From a virus: DNA of 64,000 nucleotides. The stretch covers positions 1 to 64,000 of IMG/VR virus record IMGVR_UViG_3300047548_001261; one strand, written 5' to 3'. The notes beneath the pieces are model-generated. The model was not told where the DNA came from and made no database searches. It saw only the letters and a program-made list of their open reading frames with translations. Both the position numbers and the translations under genes were made by a program. Shown piece after piece: positions 35,290 through 43,762 of the stretch (its first letter is position 1; each line of letters starts with the position of its first letter).

Positions 35290-37163
35290 ATCGGTCTTGG
35301 ACGCATAAGAATATTGCGAGGAGTATTCAGTTTAGTTCGAAAGGGGTCCTTCTTTGGCCCACAAGTGACGACGCACCGAACGGGTGGGGAGAACCTTTTG
35401 ATACGATTACTGGTACGATAGGGGGGCCGAACCCAAACGTCTTACTGACATACACAGGGCCTACGGTAGGTATTAAACGAGGAGTCAAAAGGTCGCAGGC
35501 TGGTAACTGTTACTGGCGCGGCCCGCAAGGCAGAGTTATCTCTTGGCAAGGCCCTTGGGGCTTTCAAGTCGAATCCCCTGCACACTACTTCGGTACACCG
35601 TCGTACTCGTCCTCGTACGAAATAGCTCTGGCTGCAAGGGCTGGCGCTGCTCTATCCTCCATCGGGTACACTCAGACTACATCTTATATCCCGATAAACC
35701 CTTCTAACCCAACAGGCCCAGGTACATGGCTTATCCACGGGTCTCGGTTTTCCACAAAAATTTTCAAAACTGGTAAATTATTTGCCACCGCGCCAAATAA
35801 AATTCTAGGGGCTGCGGAATTAAATGGGGGGATTATAGCCATCTTAGTCGACCAGACGATCCGGTATAAAAAAGGTCCGGCGGATTGGGTAACTATAGGG
35901 ACTTTAACAGACCCAACTGTCACCGATCCGGCTAAAACACTTTTGCCCTACTTAGGTATATTCTCCTTTGATGCCGACGGGTTGCACGCTATCGCTATCC
36001 GATCTGTCCTTTGCCGGGACAACCTTAACCCGAATTACGCAACGAACCACATAGAGAAAGTCCTGACTAGGGTGTCGGTGTCCCTTGATGCAAATGGAAA
36101 CCTAAGCACTTCCGTTTCACACACTGCCACAGGGGCTTTAGCGCTTATATCGACATTTCACTCGGTCAGTACTTATACCCCACCACCGCCCCCGTATACA
36201 GACGGTGGATCAGGGAGTTATTCAGACACAACAACGTACTCGTCAGAGGGCGAAACTGTTGTTGCAGCAGGATTTTACGGCAATACAGAGGTCGTCTTGT
36301 CGGCTAAGGCTCACGAAACTTCCCAAATATGGTCCACCTCATCTTCTGGGTACCGTTATGGGGATGGAGGGGAGAACGGGGAAGGGTTATTATCGCACTC
36401 ATACACTGAATCGGGGAGTAATAAAGTCGGATTGTATAACGGCGAGGACTTATTGGTTGATTTGTTTGTCAGCACTAAAACTACGTCTTCTTCTAGCAGT
36501 GAGCAATCACATTGGGGTGAGCGTAGGGGCAGCGATTCTGCGTCTGGTGGTTCAACGTCTTCAACTACTTCTTCTACAGAGTCATCTTCTTTACTATTCG
36601 CAGATGTTTCTGTAAGTCTTCCGGAACTCTGTCTTGTTAAGGAAGTTTCGTACTCCTCGTCAGAAAATTCAGGCTCCTTCGAGGTCTCCGTCGTGGTTAA
36701 TACCACCGAAAGTACCTCTTCCTCCACAGCGTCTCATACAAATTCCGTCATTAACCCTAATGTATCCTTCCCTGTAGATCAGAGAGGGCCTATCACAACA
36801 ACAAGTACTGGGCATCTCGAAACCCTTGCAAACATCGGGTTCAATTCAGCAGGTAACTATGAAACCACTAACACGAATAGAGAATACAATGTCGTAGGGG
36901 CCAATCACTTTAGGAGTTACCACCCAACGGCGGGGTATGTAGATATATTTCCCGTCTGTTACGGGGTTGTTGACCCCGTTTCCGGGTTTTGGGCTACTGT
37001 TCACTACCTGTATACAGTGAATTCCGGAACTGCAGACCTTAGTGTTGTAGAGACGACGACTGCGCAACTACCGAATGGGTTAACCCCAGAAAGTTTTCTG
37101 GGGTTAACTGGAGACAACCAAGCACTTGGCAATCTTCCTAGCAAGGGGGTTTACTTACTTTAA
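35286..37163 (+). CDS. tail-associated protein (possible receptor binding), Ser/Thr-rich C-terminal half
   Basis: 625 aa, last gene of the virion module. Confidence 0.55.
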   Translation: MNRSWTHKNIARSIQFSSKGVLLWPTSDDAPNGWGEPFDTITGTIGGPNPNVLLTYTGPTVGIKRGVKRSQAGNCYWRGPQGRVISWQGPWGFQVESPAHYFGTPSYSSSYEIALAARAGAALSSIGYTQTTSYIPINPSNPTGPGTWLIHGSRFSTKIFKTGKLFATAPNKILGAAELNGGIIAILVDQTIRYKKGPADWVTIGTLTDPTVTDPAKTLLPYLGIFSFDADGLHAIAIRSVLCRDNLNPNYATNHIEKVLTRVSVSLDANGNLSTSVSHTATGALALISTFHSVSTYTPPPPPYTDGGSGSYSDTTTYSSEGETVVAAGFYGNTEVVLSAKAHETSQIWSTSSSGYRYGDGGENGEGLLSHSYTESGSNKVGLYNGEDLLVDLFVSTKTTSSSSSEQSHWGERRGSDSASGGSTSSTTSSTESSSLLFADVSVSLPELCLVKEVSYSSSENSGSFEVSVVVNTTESTSSSTASHTNSVINPNVSFPVDQRGPITTTSTGHLETLANIGFNSAGNYETTNTNREYNVVGANHFRSYHPTAGYVDIFPVCYGVVDPVSGFWATVHYLYTVNSGTADLSVVETTTAQLPNGLTPESFLGLTGDNQALGNLPSKGVYLL

Positions 37164-37248
37164 GTTCCAGCGGAGCCGCGTCCGCTGGGTTGGTCGTGTT
37201 TCTGGAAGTCCAGTTCAGAGCGCACCGACCCTTAACGTGGCGTTATAC
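37152..37248 (+). repeat. attC-1 (degenerate left end)
   Basis: ...TAC-TTTAA-GTTCCAGC...CCTTAAC-GTGGC-GTTATAC. Confidence 0.6.
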
Positions 37249-37468
37249 AGCAATTTCCAGCGTCGCATTCCAAAAGTCCCGCCCCAAAGGCGCAATCATG
37301 GCAATGCGGCTCTCCATCGTCATTAAAAATTCCGTCTTCCTCGCAATTTCCAGTTGGCTCGTCACACTTACAACAAAGTTGCCGCGTTCCAGGATAATGC
37401 GTGGCATTCCATCGCTCATGGCTGCCCTGATCCATAGCGTGTCTTTTTCCACCAGGCCATTCGTTCAT
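37232..37468 (-). CDS. cassette 1: small Cys-rich zinc-finger-like protein
   Basis: CCKC...CHDC. Confidence 0.65.
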   Translation of the reverse strand: MNEWPGGKRHAMDQGSHERWNATHYPGTRQLCCKCDEPTGNCEEDGIFNDDGEPHCHDCAFGAGLLECDAGNCCITPR

Positions 37469-37481
37469 TTTTTGTTCCAGT

Positions 37482-37578
37482 GCATAACTCTTAGTTCAAG
37501 CGGACAATCCGCCATTTAACGCATTTGCGTGGTTAAATTTCAGTGTGTGGCGGCTTGCCACTTAACACGGCGTTATGC
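37482..37578 (+). repeat. attC-2
   Basis: GCATAAC-TCTTA-GTTCAAGC...ACTTAAC-ACGGC-GTTATGC. Confidence 0.9.
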
Positions 37579-37755
37579 ACCATATCCGCGTTCAAATACT
37601 TCATATCCAAAATTCTTGCCAAATGGATTATCTTCAGCGCATTCTTTAGCCAATTCAGCCGTCTCGAATTTAGCTATTTCATCGCCGTCTTTATCCATTA
37701 GCGGTGTGTACCCGCCACTTTGTGTTGTTAGCATTACGAAAAAATCGCCTTCCAT
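37573..37755 (-). CDS. cassette 2: hypothetical protein
   Basis: 60 aa, GGAG RBS; TAA stop lies inside the attC-2 core. Confidence 0.7.
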   Translation of the reverse strand: MEGDFFVMLTTQSGGYTPLMDKDGDEIAKFETAELAKECAEDNPFGKNFGYEVFERGYGA

Positions 37756-37773
37756 TTTTTATCTCCAGTTGAC

Positions 37774-37857
37774 GTATATCCCATCATTCAAGCCGACGCT
37801 CTAAGCATCAGCTCATTGTTTAGAATCTATCCCGCGAGGCTTAATCTTGCGTTATAC
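37774..37857 (+). repeat. attC-3
   Basis: GTATATC-CCATC-ATTCAAGCCGACGC...GGCTTAAT-CTTGC-GTTATAC. Confidence 0.8.
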
Positions 37858-38136
37858 GCACTGGGTTTCGTCGATAGCGTAAACACTCACAGGTTTTTCT
37901 CCAAAATGCGGATGTGTGATCCGCTTTTGTGGCGGATACCCTGCCCACTTTCTGCGTATCGTTTTTGACTCATCACCACGCTTCGGGTACCCTAATTTTA
38001 TGTGGATTTCGTCGTATTCAGGCCCACGCAAGCGGCGTTCCCAATAGTCGTTTGTCGCGCGATATTCCTCTGTCTTTTCGCCTTTGGCTATCGCGTGCCA
38101 ATATTCAGCCTTTAGATGCAACGTTAAAATACGCAT
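37852..38136 (-). CDS. cassette 3: ASCH/PUA-like domain protein
   Basis: LTLHLKAEYWHAIAKGEKTEEYR. Confidence 0.8.
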   Translation of the reverse strand: MRILTLHLKAEYWHAIAKGEKTEEYRATNDYWERRLRGPEYDEIHIKLGYPKRGDESKTIRRKWAGYPPQKRITHPHFGEKPVSVYAIDETQCV

Positions 38137-38232
38137 AACTCATAGCTCCAAGCGACGCAGTGCCGCGCCACGGTATTTTATTAAATTTAAGATAAGTGGC
38201 GCGGCACTGCGCTCCTGAGCATGGTGTTACGC
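38133..38232 (+). repeat. attC-4
   Basis: GCATAAC-TCATA-GCTCCAAG...CCTGAGC-ATGGT-GTTACGC with a long GC stem. Confidence 0.88.
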
Positions 38233-38522
38233 CCTTTTAAAATATGACTCAAATTCCGCTCGCCATGTATCCATGTATCCCTGTATTGCTCATATAGCCC
38301 TAGCATCCAGTAAATTACATAAGCTTGCTCTTCTTCCGCTTTCTTTGGTATGTCGTGACCTAATTCACGCAAATTGCGCGATAGCTGTCCGCACCAAAAA
38401 TTAGGGCGGCCTAGGATAAATCTTGTTTCGTTATTTAGTTCAATTGTTACTTTTTGGCACAACAATCCGGTCAACTCATGCCCACCGACCTGTGGCGGTT
38501 GTGTAGTTTTGGTTTGGTTCAT
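38187..38522 (-). CDS. cassette 4: hypothetical protein
   Basis: Starts inside attC-5 and ends inside attC-4. Confidence 0.65.
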   Translation of the reverse strand: MNQTKTTQPPQVGGHELTGLLCQKVTIELNNETRFILGRPNFWCGQLSRNLRELGHDIPKKAEEEQAYVIYWMLGLYEQYRDTWIHGERNLSHILKGRNTMLRSAVPRHLS

Positions 38523-38579
38523 AGTTCATCGCTCCGTTAAGGTTTCGTGTCCGGCTGGCTGGTTAGCTTTGCGTTAGGT
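38457..38579 (+). repeat. attC-5
   Basis: GCACAAC-AATCC-GGTCAACT...GGTTAGC-TTTGC-GTTAGGT. Confidence 0.75.
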
Positions 38580-39481
38580 ATACTCCGCAAAATATGCGCT
38601 ATTACATCCACAGTCCAGCCATTTCCTAGCATTCGTTTAGCCTGATTATCAGAGACAGAATCAGTGTACCCCTCTGGCACGGTTTGGAGTCTTTCGCACT
38701 CTCTGCGGGTATAGTGCCTGTACGGCAACCTTCTACCAAATGCGTCAGGATGTCTGCCTATCGGCATTGAAGTAAGTACATTATCTTTTGCCACTGTCGT
38801 TAAACAATTCGATTTATTCCTGTTACTTTCGCGCACCTCTAGGCATTGTGTTATCGGGATAGATTTATTGCAATCATCCCTAACTCCTCTTTCGTTTAAT
38901 CGTCGCCCCAGAATAGTCGCTTTGTTTAGATACCTTCCCCGTATCGCGGCCGGTGAAATAACCTCAATATCATCCAAAATATCAACTAGGTTTATGTTTT
39001 TATTCTCCGGCCGCTCGATATTTGGTATGTTTGTCCAATATAGCCTTACTCTGTTCTGTGCGGAAAGCAGCGAAGAATTTATCTCAATGGGCAAAACCCC
39101 AAGTTTGTCACTTATTACATCTTGCCACTCCTTTTTCATTCCGACGTTTTCAAGTAGGAAATATTTTGGCTTGCATTCTTTCATCAGCCTAACAAATTCA
39201 AAGAATAACTTACTACGCGGGTCTTCAAAATTAAGTTGCAGCCCGCTAGATGAGAACCCTTGGCACGGTGACCCTCCTATCAGCAAATCAATCTGTGGTA
39301 AGTCTGCCGCTACGACATTGACCACATTTCCAATCCTGATAATTTCTGGATAATTTGACTCTGATACCTTGATAGCGTGTTTATCTATTTCGCTGGAATA
39401 ATAGGCTTTAACTGGTATTCCTGCGCGCTCCAAAGCTATACGGCCACAGGACATTCCGTCAAAAAGCGATAGTACGTTCAT
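38537..39481 (-). CDS. cassette 5: DNA cytosine-5 methyltransferase
   Basis: LSLFDGM, GGSPCQGFS, ENV, QNRVRLYW, ECERLQT, LGNGW. Confidence 0.92.
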   Translation of the reverse strand: MNVLSLFDGMSCGRIALERAGIPVKAYYSSEIDKHAIKVSESNYPEIIRIGNVVNVVAADLPQIDLLIGGSPCQGFSSSGLQLNFEDPRSKLFFEFVRLMKECKPKYFLLENVGMKKEWQDVISDKLGVLPIEINSSLLSAQNRVRLYWTNIPNIERPENKNINLVDILDDIEVISPAAIRGRYLNKATILGRRLNERGVRDDCNKSIPITQCLEVRESNRNKSNCLTTVAKDNVLTSMPIGRHPDAFGRRLPYRHYTRRECERLQTVPEGYTDSVSDNQAKRMLGNGWTVDVIAHILRSIPNAKLTSQPDTKP

Positions 39482-39513
39482 CCAATTTACCTATTCGTTG
39501 TAAGTAAAAACCA

Positions 39514-39577
39514 GCCAGACCCTGCGCTCCAGAGCGACGGCGGAAAAGCACCGCCGCGCCTGAACTATGCGTTGGGC
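39514..39577 (+). repeat. attC-6
   Basis: GCCAGAC-CCTGC-GCTCCAGA...CCTGAAC-TATGC-GTTGGGC. Confidence 0.8.
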
Positions 39578-39578
39578 T

Positions 39579-39803
39579 TCAGCCTATATCGTCTAAGTAA
39601 TCCTTGAGTGCAACATAAGCTCGCGCAAATGCCTCTTTTCTTGATGGTGAATTGTTAATTTTTATCTCTGCATCGCCCCATTTGCCAGGTTCTTTGCCTC
39701 TTCGGTCATAGACAAAAATATTCCAGTCTGTAATCCCGTTGTGACCAATTTCCAGTGCCAGCATTGATTGCTGGGCATATAAATCTAAAAAATCTTCTTC
39801 CAT
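39579..39803 (-). CDS. cassette 6: hypothetical protein
   Basis: 74 aa, GAGG RBS. Confidence 0.7.
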   Translation of the reverse strand: MEEDFLDLYAQQSMLALEIGHNGITDWNIFVYDRRGKEPGKWGDAEIKINNSPSRKEAFARAYVALKDYLDDIG

Positions 39804-39825
39804 ACAAGCCTCTTAATTATCTATA

Positions 39826-39947
39826 GCCCAACAAGTCAGTCAAGCTGGACGGTGCGCCTGTGGCGCGGGTTAAAGTCAGTGTTTCGGTAAGGGCCAGTGC
39901 GCTAATCAGGTTATTCCAGCGCACCGCCCCTTACCTCTGCGTTATGC
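39826..39947 (+). repeat. attC-7
   Basis: GCCCAAC-AAGTC-AGTCAAGC...CCTTACC-TCTGC-GTTATGC. Confidence 0.88.
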
Positions 39948-39949
39948 AC

Positions 39950-40117
39950 TTACATGTCCAGCAAGCTGCGCACAACATCAAGCAACGTATCAGCAATCTT
40001 ACCGTCTTTGCCGTAGTCGGCGGCAAGGCGGCGAAGGCGCTTATAGCAAGCTTCGTCAACTGCGTTGTTATCGTCTCTATCTTTCAGCAATTCTTCAATC
40101 AATTCTTCGTCTGTCAT
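39950..40117 (-). CDS. cassette 7: small acidic protein
   Basis: MTDEELIEELL...; could start upstream within attC-8. Confidence 0.6.
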   Translation of the reverse strand: MTDEELIEELLKDRDDNNAVDEACYKRLRRLAADYGKDGKIADTLLDVVRSLLDM

Positions 40118-40119
40118 GT

Positions 40120-40216
40120 GCATAACTCTTAGTTCAATCGGACAAGCCGCCATTTAACGCATTTGCGTGGTTAAATTTCAGTGTGTGGCGGCTTGCCGCT
40201 TAACACGGCGTTGGGC
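40120..40216 (+). repeat. attC-8 (near-identical to attC-2)
   Basis: 3 mismatches to attC-2 up to the final GTT. Confidence 0.92.
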
Positions 40217-40217
40217 C

Positions 40218-40517
40218 CTACCAGCGGCGGATATTCGCAAAATCCCAAAATTGTCGGCGACCCTCAGCATCGGTTGCGTCGCTCCATAGCAAAGCTATCC
40301 GCTGGCCCGTCATTGCCTCGACAACACCGTTAATTAGCCCGAGAGCTCCAACGGCGTATCCGCCGGTTACGCCTAGCTCATCAACCTGCACCGTCGGGTG
40401 ATCTGCCAGCGCATGATTACACGGCACGCGGTTGCACATCAGCGCATGAATTGCGTTTCTGTCGTCGTTGTACGCGCCATTTAGTGTGTCGATGGCTTTT
40501 TGTATTTGCGTTGCCAT
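40218..40517 (-). CDS. cassette 8: hypothetical protein
   Basis: 99 aa, GAGG RBS. Confidence 0.7.
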   Translation of the reverse strand: MATQIQKAIDTLNGAYNDDRNAIHALMCNRVPCNHALADHPTVQVDELGVTGGYAVGALGLINGVVEAMTGQRIALLWSDATDAEGRRQFWDFANIRRW

Positions 40518-40532
40518 ATTGGCCTCAATTTT

Positions 40533-40577
40533 GCCTAACGTTACATTCGAGCGGACGCGTGGTAAGCGCCGCTCATT
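40533..40577 (+). repeat. attC-9 (right core missing)
   Basis: GCCTAAC-GTTAC-ATTCGAGCGGACGC...GCGCCGCTCATT; no GTTRRRY at the expected spacing. Confidence 0.7.
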
Positions 40578-40714
40578 TACCCAGCCCCGTTCGCCTGCAC
40601 CTGTGAATTCAGGTTAAGGGTGCCTGCTAATCTTCCAGTGAGCTTATTCGTGCCCTGGTTAGCCTTCCAAGTGAACTCGCCGGTTTCCTGCTCGTAATTT
40701 ACTAAATCTTTCAT
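40577..40714 (-). pseudogene. HNH endonuclease N-terminal relic
   Basis: MKDLVNYEQETGEFTWK...LAGTLN resembles the N-terminal HNH region at 5817 (LSYNPETGNFTW); 45 aa. Confidence 0.65.
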
Positions 40715-42744
40715 AGTTGTATAACATTCTCAGCCACATCATCTTCCCGGTGAGTTACCGTAAGCGACTGGCCACAAAAAGAGTTTAACGCAAGCATACA
40801 TTGCAGACTCACATCCTTATCCATATCGGCGGAAACTTCGTCCAGGATCAGGCAGTCCAGGTTCGTCGTCGATAACCTAACAAGCCCAAGCTTCATTCCA
40901 AGACCCATCAAAGTTTTCTGCGCACCCGATGCCGACGACTTACTAAACACATGGTCATTCTCTTTATAAGAGATGGCGCCATTGTGGAGCAGCACACTTT
41001 GAATATCTCCCTGCGTCGCTGTCTTGGCAAACTCCGAAGCTACAGAGAAGATTACGTCGTTCGCCTCGGAGACAATACTTGCCCTGTGAGTAGAAAGAAC
41101 CTGTACAATTTCGGCATAAAGCTGAGCTTTGTCGGAGTTTTCCTTTTCCAGTTCTAGCGCTTTCACATGTTTGGCAAAGGCGTCTTGTGCAGTCCGTAAA
41201 GCTTCCTGGAAAGTTCTTAGCTCAGAGGATGCAGCCTCGAATGCCTTGCGGTTATCGGTAGAGTCCTGACAAACCTTATTGAGTTGCGCCGTTAACTCGC
41301 TGAGGTTTATCAACCCGCCGGCAGGTGGAGTCAATGCTGCAAACTCCGTCGTTAGCTGGGTAAAGTCGTCGTTCTCTCTCTGGGTCTGCTTATTTTGCTG
41401 GGTTTCCTCAGCGATTTTCTTTGATAATGCACGGGCTTTCGTCGTTAAATCATCAAGATTATGCCCAGGGTTTTTACCTAATGCGTCATTCGCTGATGCT
41501 AAATCTTTCTTCGCCCTTTCGACCTTTTCCACATAGGATTCGTAAGCGTTGACAAGTTTAGTGTTGGCACGAACCGCTTCGCTTGCTTCAGAAAGCCTTG
41601 CTTTCGCTTCCGCAACCTTGGACTCTAGCCCAGGAATGCTATTTGAAGCCTCTGCCAAAATCTTTTCAAGCGTAGGTAATTCGTGGTAGCCGTCATAAGG
41701 TCTCTTGCACTCAGGGCAAACAGCATCGTGTACCGCAGACCGAAGCCGCTTAACCTCGTCTTGCTTATCGCGCAAAACACCGTTTGCCGCAGTCAACAAA
41801 CCCCCAAGGTGTGCGGTTTCGTCCACGATTTCTTCAACCTTTTCGACAGGCTCTCTTTCCAACCTCGCGAGGATGTCCTTATAAGTTGAAACCTTTTCAA
41901 ACTCCTTATCGTACTTCCGTTGATCTTTCTCTTGTTGATACAGACTAGCAACCTCAGCCTCGTCCTCGACAGTATCGAACAAAGGCTGCAAAGCTAACCC
42001 GTCCAAAGCTTTACGTTTGGTATCGTAAGCGTCCACAGCTTTGTTATGGTTCACTGCTTCCGTCAGCTGTTTCGTCAAGGATGCTGTTTGTGTGTCACAT
42101 GCCTCGCTTGCAGCCTTAAGCCCGCTTAGCGCCTTTTCTGTGTCGGATATATCGCTGGCAAAGATGGTCCTGGCGGTAACATTTTCAGCCACATCGTCGT
42201 CGCTAAGAATGTCTGAAGCATAAGCCGTCGCCAAGGTTGTAAAGTTTGCCTCCCCCTTCCTGGCCGCCTTCACAACCTTGTCCAGCACATCCACACCAAT
42301 ACAAGACTCGATAAACCGCTGAAGTTCAGACCCCTCCATGTCCAGCAAATGCTGAGGGGACCCTTGCGGGCTCATATAAATTTGATTAAATTTCGCTTTG
42401 GTAATGCCCAACTCTTCAACTATTGCCGCATTGACTGCTGTGTGACCTCTGACGAACGGCTCTGCCGAACCCCTTGCGATGTTACTCTCCTTGGACGATC
42501 TCGTCACAGTGAGCCCTGAGCTCAGCGTAAGCACGATCTTGAAGTCCTTTGTGCCCCGACGAATTAAGTCTTTGGTGTCGCAAGGGGCGACGCTGTTACC
42601 GAACAGCGCAACATGAATCGCTTGTAACACCGTGGATTTGCCTTGGTAATTCTTGCCTTTGATGAGGTTTGACCCGTCGGCGAAGTCCAAGGACAACTCA
42701 CTGAAGCGTTTAAAATTGGTCAGGTGTAAAGATTTAAGCTTCAT
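40711..42744 (-). CDS. SbcC/Rad50-like ATPase
   Basis: GKNYQGKST, CPEC zinc hook, ASGAQ signature, LILDE. Confidence 0.9.
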   Translation of the reverse strand: MKLKSLHLTNFKRFSELSLDFADGSNLIKGKNYQGKSTVLQAIHVALFGNSVAPCDTKDLIRRGTKDFKIVLTLSSGLTVTRSSKESNIARGSAEPFVRGHTAVNAAIVEELGITKAKFNQIYMSPQGSPQHLLDMEGSELQRFIESCIGVDVLDKVVKAARKGEANFTTLATAYASDILSDDDVAENVTARTIFASDISDTEKALSGLKAASEACDTQTASLTKQLTEAVNHNKAVDAYDTKRKALDGLALQPLFDTVEDEAEVASLYQQEKDQRKYDKEFEKVSTYKDILARLEREPVEKVEEIVDETAHLGGLLTAANGVLRDKQDEVKRLRSAVHDAVCPECKRPYDGYHELPTLEKILAEASNSIPGLESKVAEAKARLSEASEAVRANTKLVNAYESYVEKVERAKKDLASANDALGKNPGHNLDDLTTKARALSKKIAEETQQNKQTQRENDDFTQLTTEFAALTPPAGGLINLSELTAQLNKVCQDSTDNRKAFEAASSELRTFQEALRTAQDAFAKHVKALELEKENSDKAQLYAEIVQVLSTHRASIVSEANDVIFSVASEFAKTATQGDIQSVLLHNGAISYKENDHVFSKSSASGAQKTLMGLGMKLGLVRLSTTNLDCLILDEVSADMDKDVSLQCMLALNSFCGQSLTVTHREDDVAENVIQL

Positions 42745-43762
42745 TTGATTCTTCCAGTAATTGTTTGAATACCTCTTGGGCGTCGGCACTCAAGCTATCG
42801 GCAATCTTTTCGACCCAGTGAAGTTTGGGGCCATCTTCATCCATAATCACGTCTGTCTCAGCTTTCAGGGACCGAGTATTGGGCTTGATTGCGATCAAGG
42901 TTTCGGACGTTTTATACCACTCGGCAATCCTGGAGTTGATGGCAATGGTCTCACCGATGTCCACGGTGCCGGTTATTTCGATGAACTGTAAAGGGGCGTC
43001 CAGCGGATAGGCAAGGAAATCTTTGTAGTCGAGGGACCTGAACCGACCATCTACCGGCCACACACACTCCTTTGTCCCATCTACGGAAATAAACTTATCC
43101 GTCATCTCCCCAAACGACATCGGTAAGACGGACCCCAACATCGTTACACCTATCATTGGCTCCCGATAATTGTGCTCATGGCCGGAGATGATCGCGTCGA
43201 AATGCTTCATTGCGTGACCGCCGTGCTCGTCAGACATCAGGTGTGCTGCTACATTAGGCCTTAAATAATTTTCCGTCTCTGTCCCAGGTTGGTCGCCAAA
43301 GTTGCAGTGAAGTACCAGGATGTTGTACTTTTCAGTGTTCGGAAAGTTTTTGGCGCTTGCCAGCATCGTATCAAACTTTTCTTGGGTCAACTGGTGAGGT
43401 AGCAGGGTGTACTTTGTGGACTCAGTTTCAAAGAAGTAAGGTTGTTCCCAAGCAATTGTGCAACCGGTTTTGCGAAGTAGATTTACTGCCGATTCTTTTT
43501 CCGTGTTGTTGGATACATCGTGATTCCCTGAAAGGACGACTTCGCATGACGCGGCAAACATGTAACCTTCGACAAAGGTCTCTGAGTTGCAAGAGAAGCT
43601 GTCGAATAAATCCCCAGCCTGGATAATGCTTCCCTTGTACTCTTCGGTAAACCATATTAAAAGGTCTTTCTTGTACTGCGCCCACCGTGCCGCAGTTTTG
43701 GTTGATGTGAAAGGGAAAGGTTTTCCCAAGTGGATGTCGCCGACTATTGTTATGTTATTCAT
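42734..43762 (-). CDS. SbcD/Mre11-like nuclease
   Basis: GDIHLG, AGDLFD, GNHD, SGHEH. Confidence 0.9.
   Translation of the reverse strand: MNNITIVGDIHLGKPFPFTSTKTAARWAQYKKDLLIWFTEEYKGSIIQAGDLFDSFSCNSETFVEGYMFAASCEVVLSGNHDVSNNTEKESAVNLLRKTGCTIAWEQPYFFETESTKYTLLPHQLTQEKFDTMLASAKNFPNTEKYNILVLHCNFGDQPGTETENYLRPNVAAHLMSDEHGGHAMKHFDAIISGHEHNYREPMIGVTMLGSVLPMSFGEMTDKFISVDGTKECVWPVDGRFRSLDYKDFLAYPLDAPLQFIEITGTVDIGETIAINSRIAEWYKTSETLIAIKPNTRSLKAETDVIMDEDGPKLHWVEKIADSLSADAQEVFKQLLEESNEA

Follow-up and report, generated by a model that had tools for sequence, protein, structure and literature searches.

The DNA examined here (the window) is 64,000 nucleotides long and comprises the first 64 kb of the 81,895-bp virus record IMGVR_UViG_3300047548_001261, which has direct terminal repeats and a completeness estimate of 100%. 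The genome contains tailed-phage genes for a portal, a protease, a major head protein, a 2,608-aa tape measure, a DNA polymerase, helicases, a primase and an SbcCD-like pair. Between 37.15 and 40.6 kb lies a 3.4-kb array of nine attC sites and eight cassettes, bounded on the left by the end of a rightward tail-fibre gene (stop codon at 37161-37163) and on the right by the end of a leftward replication module (SbcC-like gene, 40711-42789). A covariance model built from 14 copies of the attC type represented by attC-2 and attC-8 detected seven of the nine sites, all on the + strand (attC-5 gave no match and attC-9 a partial one), and its matches were confined to the array across all 81.9 kb. Searches of the whole genome with TIGR02249 and PF00589 did not reveal an integron integrase or tyrosine recombinase (no PF00589 match at E <= 1), and the combination of intI, attI and Pc beside the array that makes a complete integron is absent from the 81.9-kb genome. 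Because intI and PF00589 matches are absent genome-wide, the array is a cluster of attC sites lacking an integrase (CALIN) and not an integron, with seven model-supported attC sites in a genome that has phage structural and replication genes and terminal repeats. We consider it fairly probable that this is an integron-type CALIN and that an integron integrase from the host mediates the gain, loss and exchange of its units.

The nine sites are listed below with their outer repeats, R'' and R', and their covariance-model scores.

attC-1, 37152-37248, + strand: degenerate boundary site in which L' and R' (GTTATAC, G at 37242) are kept and the tail-fibre gene end occupies the place of R''; 11.1 bits (R1, filters off); belongs to repeat families D2 and D3; its fold is a pair of separate hairpins.
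attC-2, 37482-37578, + strand: family-type site with R'' GCATAAC and R' GTTATGC (G at 37572); 108.2 bits on the + strand versus 32.2 on the - strand.
attC-3, 37774-37857, + strand: R'' degenerate (GTATATC), R' GTTATAC (G at 37851); 21.7 bits; fold z = -2.1.
attC-4, 38133-38232, + strand: R'' GCATAAC, R' GTTACGC; 16-bp perfect stem; 43.1 bits; inverted repeat I2.
attC-5, 38454-38578, + strand: decayed site with R' GTTAGGT (38572-38578); no model hit; no hairpin (fold z = +1.04).
attC-6, 39514-39577, + strand: short site with R'' degenerate and R' GTTGGGC (G at 39571); 13.5 bits; fold z = -2.5.
attC-7, 39826-39947, + strand: composite site, an R''/L'' half plus a separate strong hairpin; R' GTTATGC (G at 39941); 18.3 bits.
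attC-8, 40120-40216, + strand: family-type site with R'' GCATAAC and R' GTTGGGC (G at 40210); 108.9 bits on the + strand versus 27.4 on the - strand.
attC-9, 40533-40595, + strand: partial boundary site with R'' GCCTAAC and an L-box hairpin, without a proper R'; 7.4 bits (partial); fold z = -0.95.

Both outer boxes, R'' (RYYYAAC) and R' (GTTRRRY), are present in attC-2, -4, -7 and -8; R'' is degenerate in attC-3 and -6, one box is missing in attC-1 and attC-9, and attC-5 has R' alone. In attC-2 and attC-8 the spacers are 5 nt long, and the 5' arm of the L box on the + strand has an additional C and an additional A; on the minus strand these two bases are G and T bulges, 6 bp apart, in the 3' arm. 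Such a layout of extrahelical G and T marks the recombinogenic bottom strand, and the resulting polarity and strand choice have been described (PMC8946536). The bottom strand of attC-2 is predicted to form a bulged hairpin (-24.9 kcal/mol). The model scores are strongly asymmetric (108 bits on + versus 27-32 on - for attC-2 and -8, 43 versus 22 for attC-4), and the one structure model detects sites 64-125 nt long with unrelated sequence. Bottom-strand folding gave z scores of -2.1 to -4.1 for sites 1, 3, 6 and 7, while sites 5 and 9 failed. Every canonical feature is retained in attC-2, -4 and -8. In the 14-site family alignment, conservation spans R'' through GTT and then ends. attC-4 shows 87% identity with a site in contig L014, and attC-5 78% similarity with an attC in L010.

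The first bases of two cassettes are exact complements of the R'' end of the same cassette.

Cassette 6 start, 39571-39578, + strand: GTTGGGCT, a perfect 8-nt complement of AGCCCAAC at 39825-39832, with the ninth base unpaired; 5 of 6 variable positions match.
Cassette 7 start, 39941-39949, + strand: GTTATGCAC, a perfect 9-nt complement of GTGCATAAC at 40118-40126; 6 of 6 variable positions match.

Classical integron cassettes recombine by a crossover at G^TT, and the first bases of a cassette complete its own R'. A preliminary description of this DNA had reported both complementarities and a poorer match in the other cassettes, and it was accurate on both points: R'' agrees with its own cassette start at 4, 3, 4, 2, 5 and 6 of the 6 variable positions in the six window cassettes. 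R boxes hold little variable sequence, and the null was therefore taken empirically from non-cognate R boxes, giving P(6/6) = 0.012 and P(>=5/6) = 0.09. For a test at population level, 130 non-redundant cassettes were taken from arrays in which the family of attC-2 and attC-8 occurs. The mean number of R'' matches (out of 6) was 4.01 with the cassette's own start, 3.13 with the adjacent R' and 2.95 under the null, and 48 of the 130 cassettes reached at least 5/6, versus 11.8 expected (binomial p = 5e-18; Wilcoxon test of own versus adjacent, 9e-8). End-complementarity is real and highly significant at the level of the population, and is not provable from the window alone. The units are gene cassettes in the sense of being bounded by G^TT and having an R'' complementary to their own first bases. 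Since the complementarity is symmetric between strands, it is no guide to the strand, or to the flanking attC, that goes with an ORF (open reading frame); other evidence supplied that.

An identical (100%) cassette, consisting of a 58-aa reversed ORF and a family attC, is present in three neighbour combinations in L040, L053 and L079, overlapping contigs of one bacterial array, and has two left and two right neighbours. Its identity breaks between C and GTTATAC on the left and after GTTA on the right, both at most 3 nt from G^TT. It follows that the ORF moves together with the attC next to its start codon, in agreement with the integrase rules. The mirrored unit, an ORF with the attC at its 3' end, was rejected, because the cassette breaks on the right at its own R' and on the left at the upstream R'. 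A 649-nt cassette common to contigs L006 and L085 (94% identity) likewise stands between unrelated neighbours, and its start and R'' covary (TTATAC/GTATAA versus TTATGC/GCATAA). Exact duplicate cassettes are also found within single bacterial arrays (cassettes 3 and 8 of L040; 13 and 18, and 14 and 17, of L079).

An alternative, which we regard as unlikely, is that the attC-like repeats are portable homology, and that co-infecting phages swap ORFs in a T4-type manner, by homologous recombination or gene conversion in conserved 60-120-nt sites, with IntI uninvolved in phage DNA. The L006 and L085 cassettes lend it some support, as their ORFs are 94% identical and their attC sites just 77%, although lower identity in an attC loop would be the expected neutral divergence beside a constrained ORF. 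attC-7 also fits such exchange. It resembles the 5' part of one attC fused to the greater part of another, and its low fold z (-4.1) is obtained as two hairpins. Recombination functions, the SbcCD-like pair together with a helicase/exonuclease, lie beside the array, and an integrase was not found in 12 of 14 viral records tested. However, homologous exchange gives no reason to expect that R'' should complement the start of its own cassette or covary with it, that breaks should fall exactly at G^TT next to unrelated left neighbours (window position 37851 in the X3 relative described below; L040, L053 and L079), or that conservation should end right after GTT in the 14 aligned sites.

All window ORFs lie on the strand opposite the attC top strand (6 of 6 scored), with the attC 5' of the gene; the canonical arrangement, in which a single promoterless ORF lies on the top strand of its attC and upstream of it, was not seen in the window. 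The ORFs are as follows.

c1, 37232-37468, - strand: 78-aa Cys-rich ORF of cassette 1.
c2, 37573-37755, - strand: 60-aa ORF with its stop codon inside attC-2 R'.
c3, 37852-38136, - strand: 94-aa ORF, phrog_625 (PHROG E = 8e-31).
c4, 38187-38522, - strand: ORF with a longest reading of 111 aa; the true start is probably near 38459.
c5, 38537-39481, - strand: solitary C5 cytosine DNA methyltransferase, 314 aa (Pfam PF00145, E = 3.9e-43; phrog_116, E = 6e-68).
c6, 39579-39803, - strand: 74-aa ORF.
c7, 39950-40117, - strand: 55-aa acidic ORF whose ATG abuts attC-8 R''; kept in the relative from run X3 described below.
c8, 40218-40517, - strand: 99-aa ORF, phrog_21281; also kept in X3.

Because the ORFs are reversed, the minus strand is at once the coding strand and the attC bottom strand. 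The same polarity prevails in the other viral contigs, where about 22 of 24 scorable cassettes are reversed and 2 co-oriented. Two bacterial comparisons calibrate the assignment. In the 163-kb contig L045, the integrase gene and the array are divergently oriented and the attC sites of that array fit the model in the canonical direction, and in the large arrays L079 (21 sites) and L040 the ORFs are co-oriented with the attC top strand. The idea that the reversal arose from an inversion between the R' and R'' boxes on either side was rejected, as 63 of 63 homologous cassette pairs keep their orientation relative to attC. A literature search found no paper describing reversed polarity in phage arrays. 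The cassette ORFs (37232-40517) range in G+C from 0.40 to 0.55, versus 0.48-0.51 in the flanking backbone, a spread that fits mixed foreign origins. A promoter and terminator scan of the array gave signals no higher than shuffled controls, and the array may be transcribed along with the leftward replication genes of the phage.

attC-2 and attC-8 are near-identical (97% over 95 nt, 37480-37574 versus 40118-40212). They differ at 3 of the 95 positions, all in stems (37500/40138, 37508/40146 and 37561/40199), and diverge right after their common GTT, into ATGC and GGGC. The ORFs beside them (c1, c2, c7 and c8) showed no mutual similarity by blastp. All of this agrees with the preliminary description, which had gone on to propose that one attC template had been attached to different genes, with a bearing on how cassettes are created. 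The observation stands, and the conclusion about creation is supported only in part. The two sites are mutual nearest relatives among 56 distinct family members (96.8% versus 92.5% for the next best), attC identity is higher within a contig than between contigs (0.93 versus 0.83 +/- 0.06), and attC-2 R'' (GCATAAC) misfits the c1 start (TTATAC), whereas R'' of the c1 homolog in L026 (GTATAAC) fits its own. These three features make recent copying or gene conversion within the array the likelier origin of the twins. Each twin also has one or two private changes from the family consensus that break a stem pair. The near-identity could have arisen by gene conversion or homologous exchange between attC copies, or by duplication followed by ORF replacement, and the homogenisation of attC copies within one genome is a further point for homologous exchange in general. 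Any such copying would have come on top of an attC type that was already associated with dozens of unrelated ORFs across many phages. Chromosomal integrons have long been known to carry a single attC type beside many unrelated ORFs, a pattern that by itself is silent on cassette creation.

To follow the array in related phages, assembled contigs from public runs were aligned to window positions 36900-40900. Run X3 (wastewater, from another study) contains a relative, in contigs of 21 kb and 16.5 kb, whose identity to the window is about 94-98% at the tail-fibre end and over 40131-40900. Between these, 637 different bases stand in place of 37167-37773, 669 in place of 37581-38472, and 637 in place of 38578-39846. 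The array has thus changed at the scale of cassettes between sister phages. The relative departs from the window at 37166, within attC-1, shares only the part of attC-7 from 39847 onward, and retains attC-5 at 38473-38577. Its left breaks fall at or just past G^TT: at 37851, the G of attC-3 R'; at 37580, attC-2 R' plus two bases; and at 38577, inside attC-5 R'. Together with the 130-cassette footprint, the cassette in three contexts and the covariation in L006 and L085, the break at 37851 supports the claim of the preliminary description that real site-specific events took place at G^TT. The relative keeps attC-3, -5, -7, -8 and -9, together with c7 and c8, in order, and the ORFs between them differ. 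This collinear attC scaffold, with similarity resuming at the attC starts, speaks for homologous exchange. Run X4 (a third study) holds small contigs at 99% identity or more, one pair of which spans c2, attC-3 and c3 as in the window.

At least 25 contigs of IMG/VR and 51 of metagenomes contain the attC family, and the first 14 matches are all full attC sites. The window's major head protein was common to none of 30 array-bearing or c3-bearing viral records tested, which argues that the attC sites spread horizontally. In comparisons of the arrays of similar-sized phages (L026 with L032, and L012 with L031), the attC sites alone are in common. A recombinase was detected in 2 of 14 other viral records tested. 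The one examined as a possible IntI, a tyrosine recombinase adjacent to the array of L004, proved to be an ordinary Xer/phage-type integrase (26 bits versus a cut-off of 265). No match to the array or to attC-2 was found among GenBank phages (near and distant modes) or PLSDB plasmids. When 185,579 species genomes were searched for a 19-mer from the L'' arm, 7 matches were obtained, roughly as many as chance would give, and the model recognised none of them as an attC; the pattern misses the GGAAAAG variant of L045, and the result is therefore uninformative on absence from bacteria.

The bacterial metagenome contig L045, which carries an MsbA-type transporter, encodes a true integron integrase (TIGR02249, 383 bits; cut-off 265). 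At L045:141-5712 it holds a complete chromosomal integron, with an IntI of 466 aa that includes an N-terminal extension of about 150 aa, and seven adjoining attC sites. The closest named integrases, at 88-94% identity, are those of Methylovulum, Methylomonas and Methylicorpusculum, Methylomonadaceae methanotrophs. One cassette of L045 has an attC of the same family and a reversed small ORF. Because a chromosomal integron whose integrase is closest to theirs contains this attC family, Methylomonadaceae methanotrophs are candidate hosts. Recombination of the phage attC sites by an integron integrase is supported indirectly, by the presence of the same attC family in an IntI-linked array.

A second alternative is that a cassette block was captured once from a bacterial integron and has since been inherited vertically, recombination having ended and the complementarities being leftover or due to chance. 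The c2-attC-3-c3 arrangement conserved in X4 and the decay of 4 of the 9 sites are in line with such a fossil; contigs from the source sample also have no alternative joints, but this covers assembled contigs only and carries no weight. Against it stand the relative in X3, which differs between attC sites within a 94-98% identical backbone, the fully canonical attC-2, -4 and -8, and the spread of the family over unrelated phages. The ORFs are moreover reversed relative to bacterial arrays, and simple block capture of ordinary cassettes misfits. We rate this explanation as improbable, below homologous exchange.

Several observations weigh against exchange by a host integrase. The phage has no integrase of its own, the link to Methylomonadaceae comes from one metagenome integron carrying the attC family, and no cassette common to a phage array and an IntI-linked array was found. 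The footprint in the window by itself amounts to 2 of 6 cassettes with at least 5/6 matches (p ~0.10, not significant, a weakness that also suits a fossil), and 3 of the 6 fit the adjacent R' better than their own start. Sites 1, 5, 7 and 9 are decayed or composite, and much of the array may no longer be recombining. The right breaks of the X3 relative lie at attC starts and not at G^TT (37774, the first base of attC-3 R''; 38473, in attC-5; 39847, 21 nt into attC-7), and are known as coordinates alone, not as base-level sequence. This pattern is not simply predicted by exchange of an ORF with its attC, and homologous exchange within attC fits it better. It is the main reason why homologous exchange, and the reversed-branch reading given below, retain a share of our credence.

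Exchange by a host integrase nevertheless remains the reading we favour. In its terms, the mobile unit on the + strand would consist of TT(RRRY), one minus-strand ORF, an attC (R'' to L') and G, and the integron integrase of the host would insert, remove and exchange such units, possibly during infection. The enzyme would act on the folded bottom strand, which is the minus and coding strand here, and would cut between A and C of RYYYAA^C, corresponding to G^TT on the + strand. In a circular cassette, the junction would be its own attC closed by its own first bases, for example attC-8 followed by TTATGCAC. After insertion, the six bases that had closed the circular cassette's own R' would stand at its left end. 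This would explain why the start of a cassette complements its own R'', as in cassettes 6 and 7, and why the R' beside each attC is that of the neighbour (ATGC and GGGC after attC-2 and attC-8).

A further, doubtful possibility, to which we give about as little weight as to homologous exchange, is that the phages and their methanotroph hosts share a reversed-polarity branch of integrons, in which a small set of attC scaffolds lies 5' of genes and persists in unchanged order, with replacement of the intervening ORFs. In such a layout the bottom strand would be present in the mRNA, with the ribosome-binding site in an unpaired spacer and the ATG against R''. If this were true, ORFs could be joined to an existing attC, and the arrays would display cassette genesis or ORF replacement in the act; phages too would be a workshop and reservoir for integron cassettes.

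Homologs of the cassette ORFs were found in several contigs. c1 has homologs in L005 (91% nucleotide identity), where one side has a truncated attC and the other has none, and in L026 (83%), where a family attC is present and R'' fits the cassette start, as noted above. c2 has a homolog in L010 (48% amino acid identity by tblastx). The c4 homolog in run X5 departs at 38450, and L093 is 54% identical to c4 over residues 20-84; X5, a run with a small share of words, served only for the c4 break. c3 has six viral homologs, of which those in L089 and L092 are in cassettes with other attC types, that in L087 retains just the 5' half (one arm) of attC-4, and that in L088 is without attC. The L089 cassette starts with GTTAGGCC and has the R'' GGCCTAAC, perfect 8-nt complements. 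The preliminary description had held that homologs consistently without attC flanks, or with boundaries unrelated to G^TT, would refute its inference. This is not what was observed: the c1 and c3 homologs are often flanked by attC (L026, L089 and L092) or by a truncated attC (L005 and L087). The c3 homolog at L089:1418-1790 makes up a single reversed cassette whose attC is short (62 nt); no attC was detected on its other side, and the cassette may have been inserted at a non-attC secondary site. The IMG/VR record L087 (46 kb, provirus class) terminates precisely at the TT opening the c3 cassette (window 37852); this probably reflects a break in the assembly at a repeat, and the half site is probably a decayed attC. 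No IMG/VR relatives of the SbcC-like ATPase or of c8 were found.

The genes bordering the array show some additional features. The SbcC-like ATPase (692 aa) and SbcD-like nuclease (342 aa), at 40711-43762 on the - strand, directly adjoin the attC array. SbcCD-type enzymes cleave DNA hairpins. A 45-aa ORF (40577-40714, - strand) has a 4-nt overlap with the SbcC-like stop codon and extends into attC-9, which places the right edge of the array inside a small gene coupled to the backbone; it has a weak PHROG match to part of an HNH endonuclease (E = 2e-4). A pair of 14-nt perfect palindrome arms, GTTAACCCCAGAAA and TTTCTGGGGTTAAC, is located at 37079-37108, where the tail-fibre gene nears its 3' end, roughly 55 nt upstream of the stop codon.

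The footprints described here are the textbook result of recombination at G^TT and involve no new principle, but they certify the array as one of true integron cassettes in a phage. If host integrases act on infecting phage DNA, phages could take accessory genes from the host's cassette bank and return them to it; the cargo in this case is a methyltransferase and small proteins without assigned function. The relative with a kept scaffold and swapped genes offers concrete data on the long-standing question of how ORFs gain an attC.

In sedentary chromosomal integrons, such as that with the Vibrio cholerae repeats (VCRs), near-identical attC sites accompany unrelated ORFs. The present array resembles them in this respect and in that R'' complements the first bases of its own cassette rather than the neighbouring R'; duplicates within an array are seen in L040 and L079. 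In contrast to them, the phage lacks intI, attI and Pc, and its ORFs are on the bottom strand with the ATG against R''. The L045 integron shares the attC family and a reversed small ORF in one cassette, whose movement as a unit is shown by L040, L053 and L079; unlike the phage array, it is bacterial and has an integrase, and most of its cassettes are of canonical polarity with attC sites of another type (89-90 or 121-123 nt). Promoter-early stem-loop (PeSL) cassettes of T4-type phages are promoter-terminator modules exchanged by homologous recombination. They too are small accessory ORFs in hyperplastic phage regions, with repeated flanking stem-loops that enable shuffling, but they are without RYYYAAC/GTTRRRY boxes, extrahelical bases and G^TT breakpoints.

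The closest known systems are the phage CALINs published in 2023, in which attC sites of virulent phages (5 of 6 sites) were recombined by IntI1 in vitro at G^TTRRRY (PMC9892861). The array shares with them attC sites without intI and an orphan DNA methyltransferase as cargo. It differs in having eight cassettes rather than the minimum of two, and in that every ORF is reversed relative to the attC top strand, a point absent from PMC9892861. The attC family is, furthermore, common to at least 25 viral contigs and a bacterial integron, and a sister phage has a different array. Beyond that survey, the phage presented here adds reversed genes, an attC family that links unrelated phages with a bacterial integron, and a sister phage that keeps the scaffold and carries other genes.

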